Below are positions 443-62,043 of a DNA stretch of 64,000 nucleotides, piece after piece. The DNA is from an uncultured Candidatus Saccharibacteria bacterium. Its GTDB lineage: Bacteria; Patescibacteriota; Minisyncoccia; UBA6257. A program made the position numbers and the translations under genes. Below the pieces are notes generated by a model, which saw only the letters and a list, made by a program, of their open reading frames with translations, had not been told where the DNA came from and made no database searches. The stretch lies in the NCBI GenBank assembly GCA_964618625.1, contig CAZUBI010000001.1, positions 332,266 to 396,265 of the forward strand, in the 5' to 3' direction. Every line of letters starts with the position of its first letter. The first letter of the stretch is position 1.

Positions 443-919
443 TTAAATAAAAATAGCTCCGCGATATTTATCCCATTTAGCAAGTTGCATACTCCTATTA
501 GGTAAATATTCAAGCATATCTAAACGATGGTATTTATTTACTATGTCATTAAGATATTTACTAAGCCCGTGAGGTGATATTAGAATTGCTTGATCTGGAC
601 GCACGAGTTTTGAATAAATAAGCAATTGAGCGAGATGTGAGAAGTTTAAAGATGAATCTTTTACCTCAATAAAAACCAACTTATATTTACCGTCCTTTTC
701 TACTATGCCAAGCAAATCTACTTTTATATTGTAAAGTGGGTAATCGGGAAAATCTTTTTTAAGTTTTCTCTTTGAAAAGAAGTCACTTAGATATATTTTA
801 TGAACATCAAAAATTTCTACTTTACATCCGCGATTTTTATTCTGGAGATACTCTAAAAACCAATCTCTCATTGGTGCATAAAGCGCAAGTTCTCTTTTTG
901 TTGGTTTATCGTTACTCAT
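443..919 (-). CDS. Small PD-(D/E)xK-like protein, candidate small nuclease subunit of the R-M system
   Basis: 158 aa. The motif VDLLGIVEKDGKYKLVFIEVKD fits the hD...(E)xK nuclease signature. It overlaps the upstream gene by 8 nt, consistent with an operon containing the methyltransferase. Confidence 0.3.
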   Translation of the reverse strand: MSNDKPTKRELALYAPMRDWFLEYLQNKNRGCKVEIFDVHKIYLSDFFSKRKLKKDFPDYPLYNIKVDLLGIVEKDGKYKLVFIEVKDSSLNFSHLAQLLIYSKLVRPDQAILISPHGLSKYLNDIVNKYHRLDMLEYLPNRSMQLAKWDKYRGAIFI

Positions 920-1820
920 CTTTTTCTACAACAGAAATTAGATAATTTAATAACTCTCTCCAGTTATCGAAATGTTTTTCCCTAAGAAAATCGGGAAGCT
1001 TTTTCGAATCTTCTTCTGGATTTGGCGGTTTTGGTTTAGACCTCATAACCGCTTTTTTATCACCAAGATCAGGTAAGTTCTTATCAGCCAACTCTTTTAA
1101 AACTTCGTTCTTATGATTCAAGTAAGACCCTATTTTGAGAAACTGATTTGCGTAAATCTTTACTTGATGTTCCTTTGCCCAAAATCCTTTATCCCTTTTA
1201 AATTCGGGGTCTCTAAAATTTGGATGCCCGAAGTCAATTGTTTGTATTGGGACATCGAGATTAGAAAGTAGTTTGAACAGGTCAACAATAACAAGCCAAT
1301 TTCTCTGATCAACTTCCAAATAAATCCTGTGTTGGTTTTCTTTTCCAAAGGCAGCGTTTGATTTTCTTATATGTCCAGTGGTATCGAAATAGCCACGCAA
1401 GAATTCTTTTTGTATTTCTTTATCTGCTTCAAATATTGCCGTTGGTATTCTGAAAGAATGAAAATCAACGAATTCATCATTGAGAAGATACTTCAGCACT
1501 TGCCACGATAAATCTTCTCCGTGCCATGTAAGAATCAATGCTACGTCATTTTGGTTTGTATTATCTTTAGAAACATCGAAGCCGTAATGCCGTATCCTAT
1601 TTACTATCGTGTCTAAACTACTGGACAATTCAAGAGAAGTATCGTATGACTTTGTGTAGCCAACAGCACCCAAGCTTTTATAAGGGAATGTAATTGAAAG
1701 GCGTTTTGTTTGTCCATCACGCATGAAAATTCCCTTACCGACTACCAAACCCAGAAGGTATGCGATATCCTCGTTTAAAAAGTCTGAAATTTTATTAGTT
1801 TTGTCCATATTATTTTTCAA
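912..1820 (-). CDS. Free-standing LAGLIDADG-fold protein with degenerate catalytic positions, paralogous to the endonuclease domain of the gyrB intein
   Basis: Two LAGLIDADG-like motifs are present: LNEDIAYLLGLVVGKGIF and IQKEFLRGYFDTTGHI. They closely match the gyrB intein-2 motifs LNEDFAYLLGFYIGDGCF and IQQAFLRGYLESDGSI. Position 8 of each motif is K/T rather than D. The gene overlaps the methyltransferase gene by 11 nt. Confidence 0.5.
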   Translation of the reverse strand: MKNNMDKTNKISDFLNEDIAYLLGLVVGKGIFMRDGQTKRLSITFPYKSLGAVGYTKSYDTSLELSSSLDTIVNRIRHYGFDVSKDNTNQNDVALILTWHGEDLSWQVLKYLLNDEFVDFHSFRIPTAIFEADKEIQKEFLRGYFDTTGHIRKSNAAFGKENQHRIYLEVDQRNWLVIVDLFKLLSNLDVPIQTIDFGHPNFRDPEFKRDKGFWAKEHQVKIYANQFLKIGSYLNHKNEVLKELADKNLPDLGDKKAVMRSKPKPPNPEEDSKKLPDFLREKHFDNWRELLNYLISVVEKDE

Positions 1821-3657
1821 AAATTAAAATATACTCATGAACTTTATTCACGATAAAACTATAAGGATATCCTAGGGGTTTTAGATTATTATATTCTTTC
1901 TGTCTGTCCCAAATCGCTATATCTCGCTGCTTGAAACCTATGTCTTGTAATTTATTAGCCAAGTCAGAATGAAAAGGATAAAAGTTTGATTTTTTTCTGA
2001 TATCCATAACGATTACAGCACAGAACCCACCACTTTGTAATGAGATGTAGACGTTTTTAAATATATTCTGAAGAGATATTAAAAACTCCTCATAGTCGTG
2101 TAGATTTCCTAAATCTTGTTTACTATCTCCATAATTTACTATTTTTTTATTGTCCGCCGTTCTTCTTTCATTCAAGATATCCCAATATGGTGGTGAAGTA
2201 ATACATAACTTCACAGAATTTGGTTTAACGTGTTTACTTAAATTCAAAGCATCGTCAACGAATAATTCATATCTGCCTTTCTTATTAAAATCTTTATAAT
2301 GGGTAGAGAGGCGTTTTTTGCAAAGTTTAATATATTCTTTGTTGAGATCTATTCCTACTGCCTTTCTATCTTTTCTTAATGCAGCGATGACCACGCTACC
2401 GCTACCCACCATGGGATCAAGGACAATGGAAGTTTTTTTGCCAGTGTAAATATCTATAAGTCGTTCCGCTAAAGAAATTGGAAATATTGCTGGGTGATCA
2501 AGTGTTGACTCTTCCGAATTCTTTGAAATATCTCGCCAGATGCTAAACGAATTTTGCAACCACCTAGATCCATTCAGTCTATTAAACCTGTCTTTAAGTC
2601 CGTTTATACTAACAACATATAAACGTTCGTTTGTAGAATTAGGATCATTGCTGGTCTGGTTTATGCTCCTGTATCTTTTATGGCTCTGTTGATAAAGTTT
2701 TAAATCGCCCTTTTGAGATAGAATATTATTAATAGTGGGATCGGAAATTATGCCTTCGTTATTATAACTAAGAAGTATGTGGCGGGCTTTAGCTTTTTTG
2801 ATTAAATCTGCAAATACTTTTTGTGCTGTAGATTTTTGGCAGTAGAGCGATTTTTTTGATTCGTCAAAGTAAATACCGGTTTTGCTTTTCGGTAGTATCT
2901 TTACTTCTTTATCAAACCAACCTGTAGCAATTAGTTCAAGTAAAAAATAATTGGAAACGAATTGGCGAGTGTTGTAAGGTGGATCTAAATATAGAATATC
3001 CGTAGAAATTCTTCCTACAATATCATTTGCATCGGACTTAAATGCCTTATTAACTCTTTTGCTGGGAATAATTTCTGGTGGTGTTAGTGTTAGTGATTTC
3101 AAAGCCCTTTTGTCCCACTTTTTGAGAAAAGCACCGTAAGTGCCCGCAACATTTGATACAAGATTTACAGCTTCAATTAAAGCGGTAATCAAGTAGTAGT
3201 ATTCTAATTCTGTAATCTTGTTGTTATCTTTCCATTCCTCGATTTGAGTTCTAATTGTATCAATCTTCTTACCATTTTCATCAGAAAAATATTTTCTAAT
3301 TTTTTTAGTTCCGGTGGGACAATAATTTTTATATATAAATCCCTCTGTTGGTTTAAGCTTATTAAGGTAGTTTATAACTTTCTCATAAGTTTCTTTACCT
3401 TTATTATTATCAACTACTTTTTTTAACTTTCTAAGCTTGGGGTATTCATTTAATTCAATGTATGTTTTCGCTAAAGCGTAGCAAAATTCAAGATTGTCAT
3501 TAGCGATAACTGTGTAACCTAATTTCTTAAAATGTTTAGCCACGGCCGTAGTTCCAGTAAAAAGATCAAAAAACTTTGCGCCCTCGTAGAGATCGAGGTT
3601 CTTTGATGCCTCTTCAATAAATTTTAAGAGTTTTGTTTTACAGCCGTAGTATCTCAT
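1810..3657 (-). CDS. Fused dual DNA methyltransferase: an N-terminal Dam-like (D12 class) m6A domain plus a C-terminal N4/N6 (SPPY-type) domain
   Basis: N-terminal half: RYYGCK, FDLFTGTTAV and ILYLDPPYNT (Dam motifs I and IV). C-terminal half: HPAIFPISLAERLI...LDPMVGSGS (motifs X and I) and CITSPPYWD (motif IV). The protein is 615 aa. Confidence 0.8.
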   Translation of the reverse strand: MRYYGCKTKLLKFIEEASKNLDLYEGAKFFDLFTGTTAVAKHFKKLGYTVIANDNLEFCYALAKTYIELNEYPKLRKLKKVVDNNKGKETYEKVINYLNKLKPTEGFIYKNYCPTGTKKIRKYFSDENGKKIDTIRTQIEEWKDNNKITELEYYYLITALIEAVNLVSNVAGTYGAFLKKWDKRALKSLTLTPPEIIPSKRVNKAFKSDANDIVGRISTDILYLDPPYNTRQFVSNYFLLELIATGWFDKEVKILPKSKTGIYFDESKKSLYCQKSTAQKVFADLIKKAKARHILLSYNNEGIISDPTINNILSQKGDLKLYQQSHKRYRSINQTSNDPNSTNERLYVVSINGLKDRFNRLNGSRWLQNSFSIWRDISKNSEESTLDHPAIFPISLAERLIDIYTGKKTSIVLDPMVGSGSVVIAALRKDRKAVGIDLNKEYIKLCKKRLSTHYKDFNKKGRYELFVDDALNLSKHVKPNSVKLCITSPPYWDILNERRTADNKKIVNYGDSKQDLGNLHDYEEFLISLQNIFKNVYISLQSGGFCAVIVMDIRKKSNFYPFHSDLANKLQDIGFKQRDIAIWDRQKEYNNLKPLGYPYSFIVNKVHEYILIFEK

Positions 3658-5943: not shown

Positions 5944-6414
5944 CTACAGATCTAATCTCATTTTTAATCTAAAATCAAAAAAACCATATTTTCTCCAGGC
6001 TTTAAGACCTATTTTATTTCTAGCATCAACAGTAAGCTGAATGTGCTTAACTTTCTTACTTTTAAACCATTTCAATAATTCTTTAAATATCTTCTTGCCA
6101 ATACCTTGATTTCTATATTCCTTTTCAATAAAAGCATCATAAATTACTCCAATTTTTTTTGGGGGAACATAGTTGGGAGCTTTTTCTATTACTCCCATAA
6201 AATATCCAATAACTTTTTCGTTTTCCTCAGCAATGATAATTTTTGTATTTCTATCTTTCATTAATTTCTCAAAATGATCCCTAATTTCTATATAATCATA
6301 ACCAGAACGATCTTTATAGTATTTATCAATAACTCGATGGTAGTCTACTATCTGTTTCACTGATTTAACTATAAATTGGATATCTTGTTTTGTAGCATTC
6401 CTTATTAACATCAT
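5944..6414 (-). CDS. GNAT family N-acetyltransferase
   Basis: GNAT motif A is present: YRNQGIGKKIFKELLKW...HIQLTVDARN. Confidence 0.7.
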   Translation of the reverse strand: MMLIRNATKQDIQFIVKSVKQIVDYHRVIDKYYKDRSGYDYIEIRDHFEKLMKDRNTKIIIAEENEKVIGYFMGVIEKAPNYVPPKKIGVIYDAFIEKEYRNQGIGKKIFKELLKWFKSKKVKHIQLTVDARNKIGLKAWRKYGFFDFRLKMRLDL

Positions 6415-9786: not shown

Positions 9787-10347
9787 CTATTTTTCTCTGT
9801 TGCTTTTCTTTTTAACTTTTTCTTTGACCTCTTTTTCTTTTTTCTTTTCCTTTTTTGGCTCCTCTTTCTTTTCTTTAGCTTTTTCTTCAGGTTTTGCTTC
9901 AGCTGGCTTCTCTTCAGGTTTTGTCTCATCTTTTGTTTCTTCAACAGGTTTCTCTTCTACCTTTTCTTCAGATTCTTCCTCAGGCTTATCTTTGGTTGGT
10001 TTTTCTTCAATCTTCTCTTCAGTTGCTGGCACCTGCTCCATCTTTTCTCCAGTTTCAGCTTTTACTTTTTTCTCTTTTTTCTTTCTAATAGTAATGGGCC
10101 TTTTTTTGCCTTCAATAATTTTTGCTCGTATTAAAAGATTATAGCAAGAATCTGAAGGTTGAGCCCCTTGACTAATCCAATAAAGAATTCTTTCTTTTTT
10201 TAATTCAAATTTATTTATTCGCGGATCCCACCATCCTAAAATTTCTTTTGATTTGCCGCTATTAACAGCTATTTTAGAATCTACGGCTATTATCCGAAAA
10301 ATAAAATCCCTTTTTTTACCTTGTCTTTGAAATCGTAAAGTTAACAT
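9787..10347 (-). CDS. rpsP: 30S ribosomal protein S16 with a long Lys/Glu/Pro-rich C-terminal tail
   Basis: The N-terminus MLTLRFQRQGKKRDFIFRIIAVDS is a bS16 signature. The tail is about 100 aa of K/E/P low complexity. Confidence 0.85.
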   Translation of the reverse strand: MLTLRFQRQGKKRDFIFRIIAVDSKIAVNSGKSKEILGWWDPRINKFELKKERILYWISQGAQPSDSCYNLLIRAKIIEGKKRPITIRKKKEKKVKAETGEKMEQVPATEEKIEEKPTKDKPEEESEEKVEEKPVEETKDETKPEEKPAEAKPEEKAKEKKEEPKKEKKKEKEVKEKVKKKSNREK

Positions 10348-10387: not shown

Positions 10388-13300
10388 TTATATATCCAAA
10401 TTTCTTACTTTTTGGGCATAAGCTTGAATGAATTTTTTCCTTGGTAATACTTCTTTACCCATTAAAATATCAAATAATCTATCTGCCTCTTCTGCGTCTT
10501 CAATAGTAACTTGCTTCAAAACCCTCTTCTCAGGATCCATAGTTGTATCCCATAATTGATCTGGGTTCATTTCTCCTAACCCTTTGTATCGTTGAATAGA
10601 AATTCCTTTCATTAATTCTTCGTTGCTGCCATCAGAAAGTTCTTCTTTTTCTACAGCTAAAATAGCTTCATCTTTACCTTCTTCAACTAATTTTAATTTT
10701 CGCACCTTGGATTTGGAAAGCTTTCCCTTTTTTTCTTCAACTTTGCCTTGTATTTTTTCCAATACTTTTTGTTTTTCTGCCTCTGTATAGGCGTAATGAA
10801 ATTCTTTGCCTTTTTGAATCCGATACAGAGGAGGTTGCGCAATATAAAGATATCCAGCTTCAATAATTGGTCTGAAGTAGCGGAAAAACAATGTTAAAAG
10901 CAAGCTGCGGATATGAGCACCATCAGTATTATGAAGTAAAAATCCACCAGTACCAGCAACAAAATTTTCATCTTTTTTAACGGCAAAATCATAAACAAAA
11001 GGAATCTCCGTTTTAATCTTTTTTATTGAAGTTATTGGCAAAAGAACTGAATCACCAATGCGAATCTTTTTATAGCTACTTCTTCTCCTATCAGCTTTAA
11101 CAAGATAATTTTCTAATGCTTTGCTCCTCTTGTGATTTTTCCAAACATCTTTTAATCTCTCCAATTGACTAATTCCTTTAACCGAGATAAGACGTCCTGG
11201 ATAATTACTTCTTATCATTACCCCGTCTTTGCGCAGATGGTCTTTTGAAAATCGCATAGTACTTTCAGGAAAAATGCCAAGTTGGCGAAATAGCAAAACA
11301 ATACCGTCTGATAAATTTTCTGAGGCAGTGGTAAAAGTTAATTTTACATCTAATTTCTCTTTACAAGATTTTACAACAATACTTCCATCGCTTTCTAAGT
11401 AACCACGTAGGAAAGCTTGTTGAATTTTTGGATTGACACTAAAAATTTCCTCTGGAACAAACTTTTCATATGATTTCTTTCCCAAAAGCCCTAAAGATTG
11501 AAGGATTAATTTAAATTCATATGAATGAAATACTAATTGATTGTTGTTATCATTTCTTTTATCTATGAATGCTTTTGCTCCTAAAACATTATCTATGGCC
11601 TTAATAAGTTCTGGGCTATACAATTTTTTGTCTCTTCCTAAAGATAAAATAAAACGATTAGGGTTCTTTTTTTGAGACGCAAAACAACCATCGCCAATAT
11701 AAAAACCTAAGAGATAAGCAAAATCTTCATTAAGGTCAAATGCAACTTTGAGTTTTCGGGTGTGATTTTTAAAATAATACTCAATAGCATCGCTAGTTTC
11801 CAAACACGAAGATAAAGGAATGTATGCCGAAGCGTTTTTTAAAACTTTTTTTTCTTCTAAATTCAATCCCGTAAGATACTCTTTAAAAATTTTATAACGA
11901 GGCATAACATTATCAATCTTCAACTCCCATTGCTCTAATACTGTAGTATAAACTCCAATAGCTACCCCCAATCTTTTTCTCGATATTCCTTTTCCCTGAC
12001 GCCTTAATTGAAGTTTTTGCCAGTATTTAGAACTAATATCAATCCAAGCATCATTAGGAATAAACTTCATCTTTGAAGCCAGAACTTTTATTTGAATATT
12101 TTTTGCTTCTTCAGAATGTTTTAAAAGCGGGCTGATATCTATTTTTATCTTTTGATTTAACCGAGACATTGAAGCAGGAAAAACAATTCTGTCGCCAATC
12201 TTTAATTTTGTAGTTGGTACTGTGATAAAATTTCCATAACGATAAACAAACACATTATGGCATGAGGTTATTTTCATCTTATATCCATAGCGAGTTTTTA
12301 TCTCATAAAGGCTGCCTCTTAATGGATGACGTATTGTTTTTTCAATATCTCTTAAAGAAAAAGTTTTTTTGTCTAAATCACAAGCAAAAACCTGATATCT
12401 TTCTGTATCCTGACATTGGTTTTCTATAAATTCACCTGTTTTTACTAATTTTAATCTTTGTTGTTGTTTATCAAAAACAAAAATTGGCGTATCATAAGCC
12501 ACGCTATCAGCGTCAGTCATTATGACAATCTTATGATAACGAAGTTTATCAATATTAAAATCTTCACTTATTGCTGTTCCCAAAGCCACAATTAAAGCCT
12601 TTATTTCTTCGGAAGCCATCATTCTGTCAAAGCGACTTTTTTCTACATTCAAAATCTTGCCTTTTAAAGGGAGAATTGCTTGTGTGTTTCTGTTTCTCCC
12701 CATTTTTGAGCTATTATGAACAAATATACCACTTGATAACGCAAAATTATGTGTCCCTGGAACTTCTATATCGTAAACATCTATCTTTTCCTGTAATAGA
12801 ATTATTGATTTAATTCGATGATTATAATTAACGACTGCCTCATGTAATTTTTTCTCATCCCCTGCAAAAAATCTTTGGCAAATTGTATTATACCTTATAA
12901 GAGTTTTATCGTTTGTATTTTTTCTAATTAAATTATAAGAATCTTTATTAATTTTATTCTCCTTTTGATAAATTTCATACAAAACCTCTATGCATCTTCT
13001 TAGATATGTTTTGTTATAAGAAATTATCCTTTTTTTTCTAAATTCATCTGTCCATTGTTTTTTAGTCATTTCGGATCGCCAGTTTCTTAAATTTAAATTA
13101 TCCCATTGTTTCTTTGCTAATTCCGAATATTCCTTTTTCTTATCTGGATGATTTTCAAAGTATTCTTTAGTTCTTTTAGATTGTTTCTCTCTATTTTGCC
13201 AATCAGCCCAATATCTTTTTTGGGACTGATCAAGAATCTTTTTGCTTTTTGCCCTATATTCTGCATTGTTATTATAAAACTCCAAAAATTTTTGAGCCAT

Positions 13301-15361
13301 ATAGTTTTTGTACTCCTCGTTCTGCCATTGTTTCTTTGCCCTTTTGCTTAGCATCTTTTTCATCTCAGGCGTAGACATAATTTTTCTAATCTTTTCTCTA
13401 TACTCGATTGATTTGTGTGCTTGTCTGGCTTTTTCTATTACATCGGGGCGACGCAGAGTATGTTCTATATAATCATAATGGAGGTTCATATGCTGTTTGT
13501 AAGAAAATCGCTGAATGTTTATTGGATTATTATTTAATTTATTAAAATCTAAATGATGACGATGTTTTCCATCAGAAACTGAATAAATACCATTTTCAAG
13601 ATTAAATATATCAGCCAATATATGGGTATACATCCATTTCCTGGCTTTAGGGTCAAAGACCATTTCGTAACCATCTAAACCATATTTTCCTTGCCTCTTT
13701 GACACTTCTCGATAAAGAGGAGCAATGCTGTGTTGAGGAGTCAACTGAATAGCGGAAATATAACTACCATCAACTAATCTAAACCGATGATCAGGAGTAC
13801 AAATTAATTCCTCTCCATTGTCTAAAATAATTTTAATAACTTTTGTATTCTTTTTAGTCATCCTCGGGTCTAATATGGAAGCAATACCAATGTGTCCATT
13901 ATTCTGTATGGTGTAACAAAAATTTTTCTTGCCCTGCTTGTATTCTTTAATTAATGCTTTAAAAGAAAGATTACGTCCATCAGTTAATGCAATCTCTGTA
14001 TCTCCACTCCAACACCCGCCGGCAGAATCGCCCTCAACTATAAACAATTCTGATTCTTCTGCATTTTTTGAAATACAATCAGCTAATTTTCCAGGTAAAG
14101 TCATTCCTTCTAAAACCCCTTTTCTAAGAATATTCTCTCGAGCTTTTTTGGCAGCTTGTCGGGCTCGAGCGCTTAATAAAGATTTTTCAAGAATCCTTTT
14201 GGCGTCTTCCTTGTTGGCTTCTAAAAACTCTTTAAAGTTTTCCCCCACAACTTGTTCTACGGCAGTTCGCGCTTCTGGATTTCCTAATTTTGCTTTTGTT
14301 TGCCCTTCAAATTGAGGCTCTCTTAATTTTACACTGACTACGGTCACTAATCCTTCGCGAGTGTCTTCTCCACTAAAACCAATATCCCCATTTTTAAATA
14401 TTCCCTGCTCTTTGGCATAATCGTTTAAAGTTCTGGTTAATGCTGATCGAAAACCAGTCAAATGCATTCCTCCTTCTGGAGTATGAATATTATTAGCAAA
14501 AGCTTTTTCTGTACTCTCAGAATCATCGGTATAAAGCAAGGCAACCTCAACTAAAATTCCTTCTTTCTCTTGCTTGACATAAAAAATATTATTAGTTAAA
14601 CAATGAGCAGTTCTTGCCAAATATTGAACTAAAGTAATAATTCCGCTTTCAAAATAAAAAGTATAAGAAGGAAGAAGAGCGCTTTCTCTATTATCTTCAA
14701 ATTTAATTGTAGTACCTGATGTGAGATATGCCTGTTGTCTTAAATGATCAAGAATCTTTTTTGTATCAAACTTAATTTCTTTAAAGATTTCCGGATCTGG
14801 CTCAAAAATGATTTTTGTTCCAGATTTTTCGCATTTGCCTATTTTTTTAAGTTTTGTCTTTGGTTTTCCTCGATTATATTCTTGGCTATATAACATTCCA
14901 TCACGGCAGATTTCTGCTTGTAAATATTCTGAAAGGGCATTCACAACTGAAATCCCTACGCCGTGCAATCCTCCAGCTACTTTATAGGATTTTCCTCCAA
15001 ATTTTCCACCAGCATGCAAAGTACACATTACAGTTTCCAATGCTGATTTTTTCGTCTTTTTATGAATGTCCACAGGAATTCCTCTTCCATCATCTGTTAC
15101 AGCCACTTTATTTTCTTTCAATATCTGTACTTTAATATTTTTGGCATAACCACCCATTGCTTCGTCAATCGAATTATCTACACATTCCCAAATTAAATGA
15201 TGCAAGCCCTCGGGACCAGTAGATCCAATATACATACCAGGTCTTTTTCGAACCGGGTCCAATCCTTCTAAGACATAAATATCTTTAGCTGTGTAGGAAT
15301 TCTCCTCTATATTATTAAGAGAATCTTTAACTTTTTTTGTTTTTTTTACAGGTTTAATCAT
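10388..15361 (-). CDS. gyrB: DNA gyrase subunit B precursor containing two inteins
   Basis: GHKL ATPase N-terminus, the EGDSAGG motif, and IMTDAD...DGAHIRSLLLTLFFR. The mature length would be about 697 aa. The two inteins are 434 aa and 526 aa. Confidence 0.9.
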   Translation of the reverse strand: MIKPVKKTKKVKDSLNNIEENSYTAKDIYVLEGLDPVRKRPGMYIGSTGPEGLHHLIWECVDNSIDEAMGGYAKNIKVQILKENKVAVTDDGRGIPVDIHKKTKKSALETVMCTLHAGGKFGGKSYKVAGGLHGVGISVVNALSEYLQAEICRDGMLYSQEYNRGKPKTKLKKIGKCEKSGTKIIFEPDPEIFKEIKFDTKKILDHLRQQAYLTSGTTIKFEDNRESALLPSYTFYFESGIITLVQYLARTAHCLTNNIFYVKQEKEGILVEVALLYTDDSESTEKAFANNIHTPEGGMHLTGFRSALTRTLNDYAKEQGIFKNGDIGFSGEDTREGLVTVVSVKLREPQFEGQTKAKLGNPEARTAVEQVVGENFKEFLEANKEDAKRILEKSLLSARARQAAKKARENILRKGVLEGMTLPGKLADCISKNAEESELFIVEGDSAGGCWSGDTEIALTDGRNLSFKALIKEYKQGKKNFCYTIQNNGHIGIASILDPRMTKKNTKVIKIILDNGEELICTPDHRFRLVDGSYISAIQLTPQHSIAPLYREVSKRQGKYGLDGYEMVFDPKARKWMYTHILADIFNLENGIYSVSDGKHRHHLDFNKLNNNPINIQRFSYKQHMNLHYDYIEHTLRRPDVIEKARQAHKSIEYREKIRKIMSTPEMKKMLSKRAKKQWQNEEYKNYMAQKFLEFYNNNAEYRAKSKKILDQSQKRYWADWQNREKQSKRTKEYFENHPDKKKEYSELAKKQWDNLNLRNWRSEMTKKQWTDEFRKKRIISYNKTYLRRCIEVLYEIYQKENKINKDSYNLIRKNTNDKTLIRYNTICQRFFAGDEKKLHEAVVNYNHRIKSIILLQEKIDVYDIEVPGTHNFALSSGIFVHNSSKMGRNRNTQAILPLKGKILNVEKSRFDRMMASEEIKALIVALGTAISEDFNIDKLRYHKIVIMTDADSVAYDTPIFVFDKQQQRLKLVKTGEFIENQCQDTERYQVFACDLDKKTFSLRDIEKTIRHPLRGSLYEIKTRYGYKMKITSCHNVFVYRYGNFITVPTTKLKIGDRIVFPASMSRLNQKIKIDISPLLKHSEEAKNIQIKVLASKMKFIPNDAWIDISSKYWQKLQLRRQGKGISRKRLGVAIGVYTTVLEQWELKIDNVMPRYKIFKEYLTGLNLEEKKVLKNASAYIPLSSCLETSDAIEYYFKNHTRKLKVAFDLNEDFAYLLGFYIGDGCFASQKKNPNRFILSLGRDKKLYSPELIKAIDNVLGAKAFIDKRNDNNNQLVFHSYEFKLILQSLGLLGKKSYEKFVPEEIFSVNPKIQQAFLRGYLESDGSIVVKSCKEKLDVKLTFTTASENLSDGIVLLFRQLGIFPESTMRFSKDHLRKDGVMIRSNYPGRLISVKGISQLERLKDVWKNHKRSKALENYLVKADRRRSSYKKIRIGDSVLLPITSIKKIKTEIPFVYDFAVKKDENFVAGTGGFLLHNTDGAHIRSLLLTLFFRYFRPIIEAGYLYIAQPPLYRIQKGKEFHYAYTEAEKQKVLEKIQGKVEEKKGKLSKSKVRKLKLVEEGKDEAILAVEKEELSDGSNEELMKGISIQRYKGLGEMNPDQLWDTTMDPEKRVLKQVTIEDAEEADRLFDILMGKEVLPRKKFIQAYAQKVRNLDI
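10928..12505 (-). mobile_element. gyrB intein 2 (526 aa) with a LAGLIDADG homing endonuclease domain, inserted in TDAD|(V)DG
   Basis: It starts SVAYDT and ends FLLHN, followed by T+1. The LAGLIDADG motifs FAYLLGFYIGDGCF and FLRGYLESDGSI keep the catalytic Asp. Confidence 0.75.
12713..14014 (-). mobile_element. gyrB intein 1 (434 aa) with an HNH-type homing endonuclease domain, inserted after EGDSAGG
   Basis: It starts CWSGDTEIAL and ends FVHN, followed by S+1. The TPDHRF block B is present. The HNH region is GKHRHHLDFNKLNNNPINIQ...QHMNLH. Confidence 0.7.
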
Positions 15362-15366
15362 ATTAA

Positions 15367-17418
15367 TTATCGTATTTCTGCTCCAATGCCCTTTAATGCT
15401 TTATAAATTTTCTCCATTTCTTTATCTACTTCTATATTTTTTAAAGTATGATCATTGGCGCGAAAAGTTAAATGAAAAGACAAGCTTTTAGTGCCTGATG
15501 AAAGATTTTTCCCCACATATATATCAAACAAATCCACGTCTTCAAGATTAGCTGGGGAAGCCTCTTGGATAATATTTAATATTCTATCTACTAAAACATT
15601 CTGAGCAATAATAAAAGAAATATCTCTGATAATTGCCGGGTATTTTGGAAGTGATTGGAACTCTCTTTCTTCTTTAACAATTTCCAATAAAGGCAAAAGT
15701 TTAATTTCCCAAAAAACCGATTTGCCCTCGCAATCATATTTTTTTAATAAGTCTTTTTTAAGACTGCCTATTATGCCAATTAAATCTTTGTTTTTGTAAA
15801 TTGCGGCTCCTTGTTGTAATAAAAGCGAATACTCAGTACCTTCTAATGGTTTGAAACTATAATTATCTCTATCAATACCAAGGCGGTTAAATAAATCTTC
15901 AATAATTCCCTTTGCTTGATAAAACATAGTGGAATCATCACATTTTTCTTTTTGAGCTAAGACACCTGAAAAGACAAAATATTCTTTCAAGTTTTTACTA
16001 TCTTTAAGGTAGGTTTTGCCTATTTCAAAAAATCTGATTTTATCAACAAAAGAAAAATTATAATTTATGTTTTTTAGAAAATTGATTAAAAGAGTCGGGC
16101 GTAAATATTTAGTTAAGACACTGGTTGGATTTTGTATCTCTATAAGTTTCTGTTGCCATTTATTGGGTAAAATATCTTTATCTTTTTCTGATATAAATGA
16201 ATAATTATATACTTCCTCTAAATTATATCCCTTGAGCCAATCTTTCACTTGTTTTCGAAATTCAAAAAACTCGTTTTGTAAAGGAAGGGCTAGAATCTCC
16301 TGTGGAATAATAGAATCTATTTTATCAATCCCATACAAACGAGCTACTTCACCCATTACATCTTCTTTTATTTTTATATCATTTCGAAAAGGCGGCGGGG
16401 AAATCAAGAGATAATCTTTTCTTTCTTGAGTAAAAAAACCTAAAAGAGAAAGATAATGAATAATTTCCCTTTTTTTAATTGGCCACCCTAAAAACTTTTC
16501 CCAATTTTCCCATTTAATGGGAATTAATATTTTTTCTTCTTTAGAGATTCCTTGTCCTACTTTACCTTTTAATATATCTCCTCCAGCTAATTCCTGGATT
16601 AACTGAGCTAAACGATCAATTGCGTAGTCAGTTAATTCCAGAGGAATATTATGTTCAAATCTCCAAGAAGCGTCAGTCCTTAGGCCTAATTTCTGAGAAG
16701 TAAGTCGAATATTTACCCCGTTAAAATTAGCGCTTTCTAAAACTATATTTGTTGTATCCTTACTTATTCCAGCCATTTTTCCTCCTTTTATCCCAGCCAA
16801 AGCCAATGGATTCTTGTTATCAGCAATAAGCATTATACTCTCATCTAAATCATATGTTTCATCTTCCAAAGTAATAATTTTTTCATTCTTCTTCGCCTGC
16901 CTTATAATTATTTCTTTTTTATTAGCAACTGTTAATTTAGAACAAATTTTATCAAAATCAAAGGTATGAAGAGGCTGGCCTGTTTCCAGCATTACATAAT
17001 TAGCAGTATCTACAACATTATTAATGGAACGTACGCCACAATCAGCTAACACGTCTTTTAACCATCTTGGAGATTCTTTTACTTTCACTCCTTGAAGCAA
17101 TCTTGCTAAATAATAGTTACAATTTTGATCTTTTATTTGAACGTTCAAAAAATCTTTAGTAAATATATCTTTTTCCTTTAAATTAATTCTGGGATAAATA
17201 AATCTCTTTCCTAAAATCGCGCCAATTTCTCTAGCCAAACCTAAATGACCTGACGCTTTAGCTACCTGATTAGATAAAAGTTCCACATCTAAAACAGGTC
17301 TTTTGCCGCGGCGTTTAACTGTTGTTTCAGCAAAATACATTGTTAAAATGTCTGCCAGTTTTTCAGGAGATTCTTTAAACTTCAATAAATCTTTTAGCCA
17401 ATTGTATGAAAATTTCAT
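15367..17418 (-). CDS. pheT: Phenylalanine--tRNA ligase beta subunit
   Basis: N-terminus MKFSYNWLKDLL; 683 aa. Confidence 0.9.
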   Translation of the reverse strand: MKFSYNWLKDLLKFKESPEKLADILTMYFAETTVKRRGKRPVLDVELLSNQVAKASGHLGLAREIGAILGKRFIYPRINLKEKDIFTKDFLNVQIKDQNCNYYLARLLQGVKVKESPRWLKDVLADCGVRSINNVVDTANYVMLETGQPLHTFDFDKICSKLTVANKKEIIIRQAKKNEKIITLEDETYDLDESIMLIADNKNPLALAGIKGGKMAGISKDTTNIVLESANFNGVNIRLTSQKLGLRTDASWRFEHNIPLELTDYAIDRLAQLIQELAGGDILKGKVGQGISKEEKILIPIKWENWEKFLGWPIKKREIIHYLSLLGFFTQERKDYLLISPPPFRNDIKIKEDVMGEVARLYGIDKIDSIIPQEILALPLQNEFFEFRKQVKDWLKGYNLEEVYNYSFISEKDKDILPNKWQQKLIEIQNPTSVLTKYLRPTLLINFLKNINYNFSFVDKIRFFEIGKTYLKDSKNLKEYFVFSGVLAQKEKCDDSTMFYQAKGIIEDLFNRLGIDRDNYSFKPLEGTEYSLLLQQGAAIYKNKDLIGIIGSLKKDLLKKYDCEGKSVFWEIKLLPLLEIVKEEREFQSLPKYPAIIRDISFIIAQNVLVDRILNIIQEASPANLEDVDLFDIYVGKNLSSGTKSLSFHLTFRANDHTLKNIEVDKEMEKIYKALKGIGAEIR

Positions 17419-24712: not shown

Positions 24713-26095
24713 TCATTTATTATACAGCATTTCTTTTAAAATTATTATTTCCTGACAAAAAACAGGGTCTTTTTCAATTTCAGAAGATATCTTTTTATAT
24801 GCATGAATAACGGTGGTATGGTCACGATTACCTAATTTTTCAGCAATACTAGTATAGGAATAATGTAACTCTTCTCTCAAAAGATACATTACTATTTGCC
24901 TTGGTTTTACTAATTCTTTCTTCCTAGAACGACCCAAAACATCGTCTTCTTTAAGGTCATAAAAAGAAACTATTTTTTTAATCACTTCTTTTGGTGAAAT
25001 ATATTTATTCGATTTATTTAAAATTAGTGACAATATTCTTTTGGTTTCTTCTAAAGAGATTGGACTATTTTTAAGGCGCGCGTGCGCGAGGACCCTGTTT
25101 AATGCTCCCTCTAATTCCCTGATATTCTTTGGGATTGCTTCAGCTATATACTTAAGAACATCATTATTTATAAGATGGGATACATCCTGACTTTTGTTTT
25201 CTAAAATAGCCAACCTTGTTTCAAAATTAGGATAACCAATATCAGCTATCATACCCCCTTCAAATCTAGACCTTAGCCGTTCCTCAATAGACGGAATAGA
25301 TTTTGGCGGGCGATCGGAGGTAAAAACAATTTGTTTATTTTTTTCATAGAGAGTATTAAACGTATGGAAAAGTTCTTCCTGTGTTTTATCTTTTCCAGCG
25401 ACAAACTGGACATCGTCAATTAAAAGAAGGTCAAGATTTCGGAAACTTTTTTTAAATTCCGTCATTTTTTGATTACGGATGGCATTAACCAAATCATCTG
25501 TAAATTTTTCCGAGGTAGCATATAAAATTTTCAATTTTTTCTTTTTTCTTTTCAGTTCATTGCCAATAGCTTGTAGAAGATGTGTTTTTCCCAATCCAAC
25601 GCCGCCATAAATAAAAAGAGGATTATATTTTTTTCCTAAATTTTCTATTACTGCCAAGGATGCTGCATTAGCTAATTCATTATTGGTTCCGACAACAAAG
25701 TTTTCAAAAAGGTATTTTGGATTAAGATTAGTTTCAGGATCAATATTAAATTCTAATTGTTCATCTAAAACTGACGATTTTGAAATAGCTGAAGAACGTT
25801 TTGTTTTTTTAGTTTCTATTTTTTTTAAAGAATCTTTATTAGTAGTAACCAGATATTCAATCTTTTTAATTTTAGGATTCAAGCTATAAAGGGCGTGTAG
25901 AATTTGTTTATGGTATTTATTTTCAAGCCATTCTTTTGTAAAACTAGATGGGACCCCTATAAAGACCGTCCCTTCTTTAATATCTAAAATAAAAGCATCT
26001 TTTAACCATGTTAGGTAATTAGCTTTAGAAATATTCAATTTAATCTCTCCCAAGGCTGCTTCCCAAAGTTCTTTGATATCCATAATTGAAATCAC
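24713..26095 (-). CDS. dnaA: Chromosomal replication initiator DnaA
   Basis: Walker A motif GGVGLGKTHLLQAIGN, an AAA+ domain, and a C-terminal DnaA-box-binding HTH. Confidence 0.9.
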   Translation of the reverse strand: MISIMDIKELWEAALGEIKLNISKANYLTWLKDAFILDIKEGTVFIGVPSSFTKEWLENKYHKQILHALYSLNPKIKKIEYLVTTNKDSLKKIETKKTKRSSAISKSSVLDEQLEFNIDPETNLNPKYLFENFVVGTNNELANAASLAVIENLGKKYNPLFIYGGVGLGKTHLLQAIGNELKRKKKKLKILYATSEKFTDDLVNAIRNQKMTEFKKSFRNLDLLLIDDVQFVAGKDKTQEELFHTFNTLYEKNKQIVFTSDRPPKSIPSIEERLRSRFEGGMIADIGYPNFETRLAILENKSQDVSHLINNDVLKYIAEAIPKNIRELEGALNRVLAHARLKNSPISLEETKRILSLILNKSNKYISPKEVIKKIVSFYDLKEDDVLGRSRKKELVKPRQIVMYLLREELHYSYTSIAEKLGNRDHTTVIHAYKKISSEIEKDPVFCQEIIILKEMLYNK

Positions 26096-29513: not shown

Positions 29514-31304
29514 TTATTCTTTTTTGAACTCTTCTTTAGCTTTTCTAATATCTATAAGTTGAGCTGGGTTTGAAGTAATAATTTGGTCTTCAGCATAAGA
29601 AGCGATAATCTGAATAGCAGCATGTTTGTCTTCTGCAAAAAAGAGACCTGTTCCAACAGAAGCTTGCAAAAGGATGGTCTTTTCCTGTTCTGTAAGATTT
29701 AAGGCTTTGCCTATAATATCAATATTGGCAGGTGATTGTCTTAGTAAAAGGGCTAAAGCAGAGTTGGTAATTAATGGTTTTCCATATGGCGAGCTTAAAG
29801 CGTCTTCTATATCCTGCGTAATAAAAGTTACTCCCATATAATATTTTCGTGCTCTTTTAACTAAACCAAACAAGAAAGAAGCGCTTTCTTCATGAGCTAA
29901 TAACCACCATCCTTCATCTATTATTACAATTCTTTTTCTTAAATCCTTTTTTACCATTGTCCATATGTAATTTAATACTACATACATGGCAATAGGCCTG
30001 AGTTCTTCTTCCAATTCCCTTACCCCAAAGACAACTAAACGATTGTTAATATTAATATTTGATGGTTGATTAAGGAAGCCAGAATAGCTTCCTCTAGTGA
30101 ATTTATAAAGTTTTGCAGCTAAATCTTCGCCTCCCTCTGTATTTTTAAGAACACTCTCTAGATCTTCCATTAATGGTAAATTTTTCTTTTCAGCGATATT
30201 TTCAGGAAAAATATCCCGACTTGCGTATGTTTGTACAATGGCTCTATCTAGCATAAGTTCTTCTTGAGGAGAAAGGCCTTTAAGCATTAACTTAATTAGG
30301 CCGATAAGATTTAAAATATGGTTGCGAAAAACTTCTTCACCAGTTTCTTCTTTTTTTACTGCAGGAAGTTCAAATGGATTAATATTATCATCAGAAGCAA
30401 CAGATATTTTAAAGTAGCTTCCGCTGATTGAATCAGCCAAGTATTCATATTCATTTTCCGGATCAATAATTAATACATTAGTTCCTAATAATAATGAACG
30501 AAGGATTTCTAATTTTATAGCATAACTTTTTCCTGCGCCTGTTTGGGCAAAAACTACCATATTGGCATTTGGCAAAACAAAGCGGTCAAAAATAATCAAG
30601 CTATTATTATGTAAGTTGACGCCATAAAGGATTCCTTTGTTTTCTGAAAGGTCTAAAGAAGAAAAAGGGAAAAGGGTTGAAGCTGGTTGTGAATTCAAGG
30701 GAGTAGTTAATAATAATCTATCTATTCCCAATGGTAAGGAAGATTCCATTCCTTCGAATTCTCTGAAGACAGTTGGTTTTGCGTAAATTAACTGCTGTTC
30801 TAGTATATTTTTGATTTTACTTTCTATTTTTATAAGCTCCTCCTTGTCATTGGCAAAAAAAGTAATATAAACACCCACTTCAAAAAGTTTTTCACTACCT
30901 TGCTGGACTGTATCTCTTAGTTTTTCAATATTACTTAAAGCAGCTTCTAATAAGGGGTTACGAACTAATCCTTTATCTGCCTCAATGCTTAATTGAGCTT
31001 GAATTTCCGCAGATTTTTTTCTTAAATTTCTTAAAACCTTATTAATGTTAAGTGGATGAAAGAAGATTGAGATATTAAAAGATTCATCTAAATTAATAGT
31101 TGAGGAAAACCAATTAGAGGCTAAATAATTTGGGTAAGTTAGGATAAAAAGAGTTGAACAATATTTATTTCCTAATTTGAGAAAGTTAGTATTAATTTCT
31201 AATCCAGCAGGGGAAATTAAGTCCTGAAGAGTAGAAACAGCCTGGGATTGGGCTAATATTTGCGGGTTTTTAGGTTTTCTTTTAAATAAATTTGGAAAAC
31301 GCAT
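29514..31304 (-). CDS. VirB4/TrbE-family T4SS ATPase, C-terminal ATPase portion
   Basis: Walker A FAQTGAGKS and Walker B VIIDEGWWLL are present. It is in frame with the upstream ORF, separated only by TAA plus one codon. Confidence 0.8.
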   Translation of the reverse strand: MRFPNLFKRKPKNPQILAQSQAVSTLQDLISPAGLEINTNFLKLGNKYCSTLFILTYPNYLASNWFSSTINLDESFNISIFFHPLNINKVLRNLRKKSAEIQAQLSIEADKGLVRNPLLEAALSNIEKLRDTVQQGSEKLFEVGVYITFFANDKEELIKIESKIKNILEQQLIYAKPTVFREFEGMESSLPLGIDRLLLTTPLNSQPASTLFPFSSLDLSENKGILYGVNLHNNSLIIFDRFVLPNANMVVFAQTGAGKSYAIKLEILRSLLLGTNVLIIDPENEYEYLADSISGSYFKISVASDDNINPFELPAVKKEETGEEVFRNHILNLIGLIKLMLKGLSPQEELMLDRAIVQTYASRDIFPENIAEKKNLPLMEDLESVLKNTEGGEDLAAKLYKFTRGSYSGFLNQPSNININNRLVVFGVRELEEELRPIAMYVVLNYIWTMVKKDLRKRIVIIDEGWWLLAHEESASFLFGLVKRARKYYMGVTFITQDIEDALSSPYGKPLITNSALALLLRQSPANIDIIGKALNLTEQEKTILLQASVGTGLFFAEDKHAAIQIIASYAEDQIITSNPAQLIDIRKAKEEFKKE

Positions 31305-60576: not shown

Positions 60577-62043
60577 TTAATTATTATTAAACTCACATTT
60601 TCCTCCCGGTCCAAAAGTGTTTGTGAATTCGCAGTCTCCAAGAGAAAGACATTCTGCTTTGTCGCAAATATTAAACAAACCTACCCCACACTCTTCACAT
60701 TTAGATGCCGGCTCTATCTCTGGTTCTGGTTCGGATTCCACGGGGTTCGCGGGTGTTTCATCGTCTTCTGAAACACAATAAGCGAAAGATTTACCTTCTG
60801 GGCTTGGGCTATTAATATTGCTTTTTCCAAAATCACAATGCCATCCATTCCCATAAATTTCTCCTGGCGGATTGAGTAATTTACTTGGTTCTACGGCAAG
60901 ACAGAAACCATCTTTTATCTTTTTTTCTATTCCACACTCAGCTGCTCCAGAAGTTTCATTACAGTTCTGATCCCACTCTGGGCACATAATTGGATATTCA
61001 ATCCATTCTCCATCTAAATTGGGATATTTTTCTTCTATTTCTTTTTTCTTCTGTTCTATTTGTTCTTCAGGAGGAATATAATCAGGATCAATAATGCAAT
61101 CAATATATAAAGTGCCAATAGGAGGGTAACAAGGATTACTTTCTGAGCCAGCAGGATTAATTTCACCCGTAAATTCGCAATACCAGCCTTTTCCATTACT
61201 TGTTATTTCACTTTTTGTTGGAATTGTGTGTTCTCCTGCCTGACATTTACCTTTTGGATTAAATTCATCTCCACATTCACGTGAGATCGCTATAGGCAAA
61301 CACATTTGATTTGAGTCGCTAACAGGATATTGATCAGCATCTTCCCATCCTTCTTCATTTTCATCATTTTCATCATCATTTTGTTTAGGTTTGCAAAAAC
61401 CACCAGGCCAGGCAATGTAATTATAATATTCACAGTTTCCAAGGGAAAGACATTCTGCTTCGTCGCAAATATTGCCATCCAACAAATATCCTCCGCAATT
61501 CGTACAATTAGATTCTGGTTCTGGCTCTGTGACTTGGTCGCCAGGATCTACATCATCTATAGGAATACTTGATTGTTCAGGCAGATCAAATATAGAGCCG
61601 GCTTCAGGGCATTCTATATGGAACCAGGTTCCTGTATAATCATCACCACCCATTTGTTTGATTGTCCAAAATACAGTATTAACAATTATCCAAGCAGTCA
61701 AAATTATAACTAATCCAATAATAGCATTTGTTATAATTTGTTGTCCAGCCTTAAGATTTTCTTCTTTACCAAGAGAGAAGATCCAGCGAAATCCTCCATA
61801 GACAATAAATCCAATTATGATAAGAAAAGCCATTTTTAAGGCAAACTCTAAAACATTTTGCGTTAAGACTAATAAATCACAAGTAGTACAAGCCTGCTCA
61901 CCAGGACCTCCACACGGAACCAATCCAGCAGCTCCTGCTGAAATAGGCACAAATATGAGAATCAGAAGAGAGAAAATAATTAATTCTTTTGTTCTTTTAT
62001 TCTTTGGCTTTGTACATTTCATGTTTATTGTTTTTTGTTCCAA
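60577..62043 (-). CDS. Pilin-like N-terminal domain fused to a roughly 350-aa Cys-rich extracellular domain
   Basis: N-terminus LVPCGG...GGFRWIFSLGKEENLKAGQQIITNAIIGLVIILTAW (VirB2-like), followed by an acidic Cys-rich region. That region has terminal repeats CxxCG..L..ICDEAECLSLGNCE[Y/F]. Confidence 0.4.
   Translation of the reverse strand: MEQKTINMKCTKPKNKRTKELIIFSLLILIFVPISAGAAGLVPCGGPGEQACTTCDLLVLTQNVLEFALKMAFLIIIGFIVYGGFRWIFSLGKEENLKAGQQIITNAIIGLVIILTAWIIVNTVFWTIKQMGGDDYTGTWFHIECPEAGSIFDLPEQSSIPIDDVDPGDQVTEPEPESNCTNCGGYLLDGNICDEAECLSLGNCEYYNYIAWPGGFCKPKQNDDENDENEEGWEDADQYPVSDSNQMCLPIAISRECGDEFNPKGKCQAGEHTIPTKSEITSNGKGWYCEFTGEINPAGSESNPCYPPIGTLYIDCIIDPDYIPPEEQIEQKKKEIEEKYPNLDGEWIEYPIMCPEWDQNCNETSGAAECGIEKKIKDGFCLAVEPSKLLNPPGEIYGNGWHCDFGKSNINSPSPEGKSFAYCVSEDDETPANPVESEPEPEIEPASKCEECGVGLFNICDKAECLSLGDCEFTNTFGPGGKCEFNNN

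Follow-up and report, generated by a model that had tools for sequence, protein, structure and literature searches.

Two inteins with endonucleases of different families in the gyrB gene of an uncultured Candidatus Saccharibacteria bacterium

What are the two long inserts in the gyrB gene of an uncultured Candidatus Saccharibacteria bacterium, did they arrive separately, and have they moved in the recent past? The gene lies in a stretch of 64,000 nucleotides (assembly GCA_964618625.1, contig CAZUBI010000001.1, positions 332,266 to 396,265), hereafter called the window, and forms an open reading frame (ORF) of 4974 nt on the minus strand (10388..15361), which contains zero internal stops and encodes 1657 amino acids (aa). 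It is very probably a double-intein gene, in which a 697-aa GyrB is interrupted by two independently acquired class-1 inteins, each with its own homing endonuclease of a different fold. An initial annotation, made from the letters alone, had resolved the ORF into the 697-aa GyrB and inteins of 434 and 526 aa, and these coordinates were reproduced exactly. Both inteins belong to families that are already present in many public genomes, and the gene is one more well-preserved example of them.

The gyrB precursor and its exteins

Junction strings were located in the translation and then converted to window coordinates (a vertical bar marks a junction; all gyrB features lie on the minus strand). 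The N-extein (aa 1-449; 14015..15361) comprises the GHKL ATPase and transducer domains and has the Toprim motif EGDSAGG at its end. It is followed by intein 1 (aa 450-883, 434 aa; 12713..14014), a middle extein of 69 aa that contains the Toprim core and is flanked by both inteins (aa 884-952, SSKMGRNR ... IMTDAD; 12506..12712), intein 2 (aa 953-1478, 526 aa; 10928..12505) and the C-extein (aa 1479-1657; 10388..10927), which starts with TDGAHIR and includes the GyrB C-terminal domain and the stop codon. Calculated from the junction positions, the joined exteins amount to 697 aa. When spliced in silico, they aligned with E. coli GyrB (whole-protein E 1.8e-198) gaplessly at both junctions, with vEGDSAGGSaKqGRNR at site 1 and IMTDADvDGsHIR at site 2. 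The junctions are thus in frame and seamless, and the extein is a continuous canonical GyrB, as had been proposed; the terminal residues (HN, then S or T) are present in both inserts.

Site 1 is situated directly after the Toprim EGDSAGG motif, and site 2 within the DxDxD triad, past its second Asp (TDAD|TDG). In type IIA topoisomerases, EGDSAGG carries the catalytic glutamate and DxDxD binds metal. Because intein 1 parts EGDSAGG from the rest of the Toprim domain and intein 2 splits the triad, the 1657-aa translation product would be incapable of functioning as a gyrase subunit.

Searches with hidden Markov models (HMMs) bore out the assignment of both inserts. Pfam Intein_splicing matched them with 66.0 and 65.1 bits (cut-off 35.8; E 4e-18 and 8e-18), and the NCBIfam models intein_Nterm and intein_Cterm each gave two matches in the precursor, all above their cut-offs, so that by Hint fold and profile both are class-1 inteins. 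GC and GC3 of both inteins match those of gyrB, and neither intein is therefore compositionally foreign. A search of the six frames of the window with HMMs of both intein families revealed no further inteins, its sole other match being ORF 912-1820 (treated below), through the LAGLIDADG region; a Pfam scan of nine other large window ORFs found no intein.

Splicing domains and endonucleases

Intein 1, inserted at EGDSAGG|S, is a class-1 Hint domain whose two parts are separated by an HNH endonuclease together with a long helical region. It begins with Cys1, which 90% or more of the family share, and ends in ...THNFALSSGIFVHN (last residues VHN, with H433 and N434 invariant), followed by Ser+1. 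Block B reads TPDH (13787..13798), and its T73 and H76 do not vary within the family. The HNH motif HRHHLDFNKLNNNPINIQRFSYKQHMNLH (13478..13564) contains the invariant residues H153, H154, N162, P164 and N166; D156, N161, N163, H175 and H179 are shared by 90% or more of the 32 sequences compared, and the string HRHHLDFNKLNNNPINIQ was found at precursor aa 600-617. Every residue that the initial annotation had named for this intein (Cys1, TxxH in block B, HNH, terminal HN+S) was found at its place.

On the window's copy of intein 1, no HNH domain was matched by Pfam at E<0.01, and HNH_3 scored E 0.061 on a 77-aa fragment (13.4 bits, below the cut-off of 24.8). Since this result was sub-threshold, the motif needed independent support, which was sought in the family alignment, in scans of individual family members and in structure. 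In an alignment of the window's intein 1 with 31 complete relatives, the residues named in HHxDFxKxNNNPxN...R.....H...H are either invariant or at least 90% conserved, HNH_3 is matched by 20 of the 32 family members (best E 4.5e-5), and the nuclease is structurally similar to a solved HNH homing endonuclease. It is accordingly classed as an I-HmuI-like HNH domain with every family-conserved residue present and with predicted activity. I-HmuI itself (phage SPO1, PDB 1u3e), which is 15% identical in sequence to the intein 1 nuclease, is free-standing and intron-encoded, whereas the latter is nested in a Hint domain; I-HmuI is a nickase. Residues 1-213 of intein 1 (N-terminal splicing region and HNH) also match NF052663, an NCBIfam model of an intein-containing RtcB-family protein (E 4.5e-34), which suggests that an rtcB-related gene, too, harbours inteins of this HNH lineage.

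Intein 2 combines a Hint domain with a double-motif LAGLIDADG endonuclease. It extends from Ser1 to ...NFVAGTGGFLLHN (last residues LHN), followed by Thr+1, and both Ser1 and N526 are invariant in the allele; the fused, intein-less site is ATAATGACTGACGCTGAT|ACTGATGGTGCTCATATC. Block B reads TSCH (12257..12268; T80 and H83 invariant), LAGLIDADG motif 1 LLGFYIGDG (11687..11713; G271-D272-G273 invariant) and motif 2 LRGYLESDG (11384..11410; S372-D373-G374 invariant). The profiles LAGLIDADG_3 and Hom_end were matched with 42.6 bits (cut-off 22.5) and 23.5 bits (cut-off 21.1), respectively. The description of a Ser1 intein at TDAD|TDG with terminal HN+T and intact LAGLIDADG blocks held in all points, and the Asp-Gly pairs of the two motifs are invariant in the allele. 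PI-PkoII (Thermococcus kodakarensis Pol intein-2), like the inteins of the PI-SceI/PI-PfuI type, has the same architecture of a two-motif LAGLIDADG nuclease inside a Hint domain. It aligned with residues 49-526 of intein 2 (E 2e-17), and the terminal HN and the two LAGLIDADG motifs coincided in the alignment. Intein 2 differs from this type by its location in gyrB at DxD|xD, its Ser1/Thr+1 chemistry and an extra XRE-like segment before the nuclease.

This segment, GISR...QQWExKIDNVMP, is a conserved stretch that separates the nuclease from the N-terminal splicing region. An XRE-type helix-turn-helix (HTH; HTH_19/HTH_3) was called in three of seven members of the intein 2 allele (best E 4.9e-7), and Pfam gave no such match in the window's own copy, in which residues 173-204 (11894..11989) are assigned as XRE-type HTH-like by homology to family members. 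The segment is probably an additional DNA-recognition module.

In the proposed course of events, splicing of the precursor would start with an N-S acyl shift by Cys1 (intein 1) or an N-O shift by Ser1 (intein 2), followed by trans-esterification by the +1 Ser or Thr. The terminal Asn would then cyclise with the help of the penultimate His, which would free the intein, and a final acyl shift would yield a normal peptide bond, the products being the 697-aa GyrB and two free inteins. Of these, intein 1 would carry the I-HmuI-like HNH (beta-beta-alpha-metal) nuclease with its long helical DNA-binding region, and intein 2 a monomeric two-motif LAGLIDADG nuclease, probably aided by the HTH-like segment. 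The targets of the two nucleases would be gyrB alleles, incoming or co-resident, in which their respective sites lack the intein; after cleavage, the intein would be copied in by recombinational repair. Since gyrB is essential and its ORF and motifs are intact, we infer that splicing takes place; both nucleases are predicted to be active. Profiles, family alignments and intact motifs thus support a gyrB with two inteins whose endonucleases belong to the HNH and LAGLIDADG families.

Distribution, independence and recent movement

A protein database search identified 344 proteins related to intein 1 at E<=1e-5. The best 120 of these 344 matches had GyrB domains, an intein splicing domain or a GyrB name, save one unannotated short fragment, and intein 1 relatives among them showed 41-57% identity at 100% coverage. 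The junctions EGDSAGG|C ... VHN|S are identical in 31/31 complete homologues, which are 371-435 aa long (29 of them 429-435 aa). The hosts that database labels name among the matches listed include Parcubacteria/Paceibacterota and other Patescibacteria, Chloroflexota, Omnitrophota and cyanobacteria and, on the archaeal side, Nanoarchaeota, Woesearchaeota and Methanosarcinales. Several relatives are already annotated as "intein-containing DNA gyrase subunit B", and the GyrBs of the cyanobacteria Planktothrix, Waterburya, Pseudanabaena and Aetokthonos are 47-56% identical to intein 1. Site 2 of the carriers is mostly an uninterrupted DADVDG, with the consensus IIIMTDADVDGxHIR reading through.

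The first GyrB inteins became known in the 1990s. The nuclease of the Ssp GyrB intein was reportedly assigned to the HNH type by Dalgaard et al. in 1997, as the first HNH recognised in an intein. This intein is bifunctional, an endonuclease domain included, and in E. coli its mini-intein is splicing-competent (PMC3620165); 33 GyrB inteins were counted by Novikova et al. (PMC4760082), and a single gyrB intein allele spans bacteria and halobacteria (PMC4071816). With the classical Ssp GyrB allele (Synechocystis PCC6803 and its cyanobacterial and haloarchaeal kin), intein 1 has in common the host protein and the site EGDSAGG|S, a length of about 430-435 aa with a central endonuclease domain, and the termini C[FW]xG[DE]T ... 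G[VI]FVHN|S, whereas its host is a small, AT-rich, Patescibacteria-like bacterium and its identity to the cyanobacterial copies is about 50%. Intein 1 is thus classed as a fresh member of the classical GyrB intein allele, the link to Ssp GyrB being made through cyanobacterial homologues and the literature.

For intein 2, a word-indexed protein search returned 14 relatives, all of them GyrB with the junctions TDAD|S ... LHN|T. When 185,579 species, each represented by a single genome, were scanned with a pattern, full-length matches were detected in 46 species genomes, in each case in gyrB at xDAD|S ... [HK]N|[T/S]DG. Their hosts are Patescibacteria, Omnitrophota, Planctomycetes, uncultured Gammaproteobacteria and DPANN archaea. 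Intein 2 is therefore assigned to a second GyrB allele, which is rarer than that of intein 1 and present in dozens of public genomes. Site 1 is empty in 27 of the 46 genomes (EGDSAGG-S/T), occupied in 8 and unscorable in 11. As 8 other genomes have a two-intein gyrB, and some of them three inteins, the arrangement is recurrent in public data and the window does not represent an extreme case.

The third GyrB intein, of roughly 530-550 aa, is inserted in some Patescibacteria at DN|S(I/T)DE in the N-box of the GHKL ATPase domain, a site that is empty in the window gyrB (ECVDNSIDEAMGG). Three-intein gyrB genes are found in loci L006, L014 and L029, with precursors of up to 2226 aa (gyrB ORFs from about locus position 6001), and L028 carries inteins at sites 3 and 2. 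Other copies are shortened, including site-1 inserts of about 145-225 aa (L014, L030, L040) and intein 2 copies of 439 and 467 aa (L024 and L030). Intein 2 ends in KN instead of HN in L004, L028, L030 and L041. These shortened GyrB inteins and KN ends are decay stages of the homing cycle. Other genes with several inteins in different conserved motifs include T. kodakarensis pol, with PI-PkoI and PI-PkoII, and RIR1, DnaE and RFC in InBase. As in those cases, one replication-related gene depends for its function on the splicing of every intein; unlike in them, the inteins of the window gyrB bear endonucleases of unrelated folds. A literature search provided nothing usable on HNH-bearing GyrB inteins or on inteins of the Candidate Phyla Radiation (CPR)/Patescibacteria. 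An alignment scan of viral contigs detected no phage copy of the intein 2 allele, only distant partial LAGLIDADG domains with 24-40% identity, and thus gave no evidence for a viral vector.

The two inteins do not appear to be duplicates of each other, since the intein 1 HMM matched intein 2 marginally, over the last ~30 residues (domain E 2.6), and the converse search gave a similar result. A syntenic relative, locus L094, was found by cluster look-up. It shares with the window the gene order PBP, ruvC, yebC, pheS, pheT, gyrB, rpsP (in the window, gyrB is flanked by pheT at 15367..17418 and rpsP at 9787..10347) and encodes a 1226-aa GyrB (P0255; 6001-9681), in which intein 2 is present, with 88% aa identity to that of the window, and site 1 is empty. 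The empty site reads EGDSAGG|SSKMGR (DNA: GAGGGCGATTCCGCCGGCGGC|TCGAGCAAAATGGGAAGA), and its peptide ELFIVEGDSAGG|SSKMGRNRNTQA is identical to the window extein. The DNA differs at synonymous positions only; the two Ser codons past the site, for example, are AGC TCA in the window and TCG AGC in L094. The claim of two independent invasions of gyrB is therefore upheld: the splicing domains are not specifically related, the alleles occur widely apart from each other in a patchy distribution, and this sister gene has intein 2 only.

The same pair of loci bears on when the inteins moved. Under strict vertical descent, the divergence of a selfish insert should equal or exceed that of the essential gene around it. 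Comparison of the window with L094 gave a DNA identity of 79-80% for the exteins and 87% for intein 2. Identical codons at conserved residues account for 75% in intein 2 and 60% in the exteins (Fisher p 3e-6), and identity at third positions is 0.74 and 0.57-0.59, respectively. The lower divergence of intein 2 than of the essential host gene indicates that it was exchanged between the two lineages since their split. The difference at site 1 goes back either to a gain of intein 1 in the window lineage or to its precise loss in that of L094, and either route requires recombination with another allele. Together, these comparisons support independent and fairly recent intein mobility.

Several points weigh against this interpretation. 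The search yielded no intein 1 relative above ~74% identity, and those nearest were partial. The recent history of intein 1 is deduced solely from its absence in the sister locus, where a precise loss could equally have occurred. Splicing and DNA cleavage are predicted from sequence rather than from experiment. Finally, the view is that of a 64-kb window, and a second, intein-free gyrB may be present elsewhere in the genome.

The strongest competing explanation is that both inserts still splice and that at least one of their endonucleases is a dead relic, fixed in the lineage and no longer mobile. The decay of both alleles elsewhere, at site 1 in L014, L030 and L040 and in intein 2 of L024 and L030, is in its favour, as is the window's HNH domain, which falls below the Pfam threshold and whose activity is a prediction. 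It is nevertheless unlikely, although by no means negligible, because the window copies are of full length and have kept all family-invariant HNH and LAGLIDADG residues, including both catalytic Asp. In addition, the lower divergence of intein 2 than of gyrB at synonymous positions and the polymorphism of site 1 between close relatives both imply recent movement. Considerably less probable is a role of the inteins as conditional, environment-sensing switches that gate gyrase post-translationally and are retained for regulation rather than selfishly. Such a role would fit the location of both inteins in catalytic Toprim motifs, with a precursor that is inactive before splicing; other replisome inteins have been proposed to splice conditionally, and the clustering of inteins in replication proteins has been discussed (PMC4760082). 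The sequence, however, gives no indication of it, the patchy occupancy of both sites among close relatives is the signature of a selfish element and not of a conserved regulator, and conservation of homing sites explains the location in conserved motifs equally well. Although the source appears to be metagenome-derived, since related sequences all come from metagenome-assembled genomes, it is barely conceivable that the double-intein gyrB arose as a chimera during assembly or binning, or that it is a pseudogene whose insertions do not splice, given the uninterrupted 4974-nt ORF with exact in-frame junctions, the uniform composition of inteins and exteins, the order pheT-gyrB-rpsP in an independent assembly and the two-intein arrangement in 8 other genomes. 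Two independently acquired, mobile inteins thus remain the favoured interpretation.

ORF 912-1820 and the prospects of the locus

The initial annotation had also described ORF 912-1820 (minus strand), which is not part of the gyrB inteins, as a paralogue of the second endonuclease recruited elsewhere and as a sign of active selfish-element traffic. The LAGLIDADG fold was confirmed, whereas descent as a recent copy of the intein endonuclease was not: close sequence similarity and the motif acids expected of such a copy are missing. The motifs are non-canonical (LLGLVVGKG and LRGYFDTTG), and the ORF belongs to a family of its own, which comprises at least 712 proteins of about 290-306 aa in Patescibacteria, Bacteroidota and others, all without Pfam annotation. 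In this family, motif 1 has K/R/H/N and motif 2 a conserved Thr where the canonical catalytic acids would stand, and other invariants are D146 and the C-terminal GHPNxR ... W.KEHQxK. A recent paralogue of the intein 2 nuclease was consequently rejected, and the ORF, as a member of a distinct and widespread family in an operon resembling those for restriction-modification (R-M), does not testify to the movement of inteins. The family profile found no match among PDB sequences, PADLOC gave none for the ORF, and a comparison of the C-terminal region (GHPN ... EHQxK) with the intein 1 HNH profile by hhalign returned a probability of 0.2% for an HNH-like finger.

The surroundings of this ORF are conserved. 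In homologues with 100%, 57% and 34% identity, one or more DNA methyltransferases always precede the gene, an overlapping ORF of about 160 aa always comes after it, and an HTH regulator is usually nearby. The preceding enzyme is a fused D12+N6_N4 methyltransferase in the window and in L084-L088, and in L089-L093 its place is taken by a separate EcoRI-type N6 enzyme and a C5 enzyme. The order methyltransferase(s), ~300-aa LAGLIDADG-fold protein and ~160-aa protein is thus kept down to 34% identity and across methyltransferase classes. The window counterparts are a two-domain DNA methyltransferase (1810-3657), typed as type II by PADLOC, and a 158-aa ORF that overlaps ORF 912-1820 (443-919) and has a PD-(D/E)XK-like pattern, D68 ... 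E85-V-K87, spotted by eye only. A C-protein-like regulator (42-353) matches R-M control proteins (E 8e-9). The possibility that ORF 443-919 is a LAGLIDADG half-domain copy of ORF 912-1820 was discarded, as the comparison showed otherwise.

BtsI is a heterodimeric type IIS enzyme with subunits of 38 kDa and 18 kDa and two methyltransferase activities (PMC3017599), and the arrangement of ORFs 912-1820 and 443-919 resembles heterodimeric enzymes of this kind. Tentatively, and with less than even confidence, ORF 912-1820 may belong to a kind of protein that is not yet described: having lost the canonical catalytic acids, it would form the large subunit of a type II restriction enzyme composed of two subunits and would recognise the DNA; its predicted partners would be ORF 443-919, the methyltransferase at 1810-3657 and the regulator at 42-353. 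WhiA, a non-catalytic DNA-binding protein derived from a LAGLIDADG enzyme, has a C-terminal HTH, whereas ORF 912-1820 is without a WhiA-type HTH, has its own GHPNxR ... W.KEHQxK C-terminus and shares an operon with DNA methyltransferases and a small PD-(D/E)XK-like protein.

Elsewhere in the window, genes were noted at 24713-26095, 29514-31304 and 60577-62043; dnaA lies ~10 kb from gyrB, so that the window is probably located near the replication origin, and other genes encode a TraG/VirB4-like ATPase and a protein similar to type IV secretion pilins.

The LAGLIDADG-fold R-M component near gyrB may be a more interesting lead than the inteins. With their full length and intact nuclease motifs, the latter are candidates for rare-cutting HNH and LAGLIDADG enzymes, and intein 2, with its Ser1/Thr+1 chemistry, for a Cys-free splicing tool. 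At least three sites in the GyrB of Patescibacteria, DPANN archaea and Omnitrophota receive inteins (DN|S, EGDSAGG|S and DxD|xD); all of them lie in catalytic motifs and are occupied in all combinations. The window and L094 constitute a natural occupied/empty pair at site 1, with a shared intein 2 that appears younger than the divergence of the host genes, and hence provide a usable system for the analysis of homing in uncultured episymbiotic bacteria.

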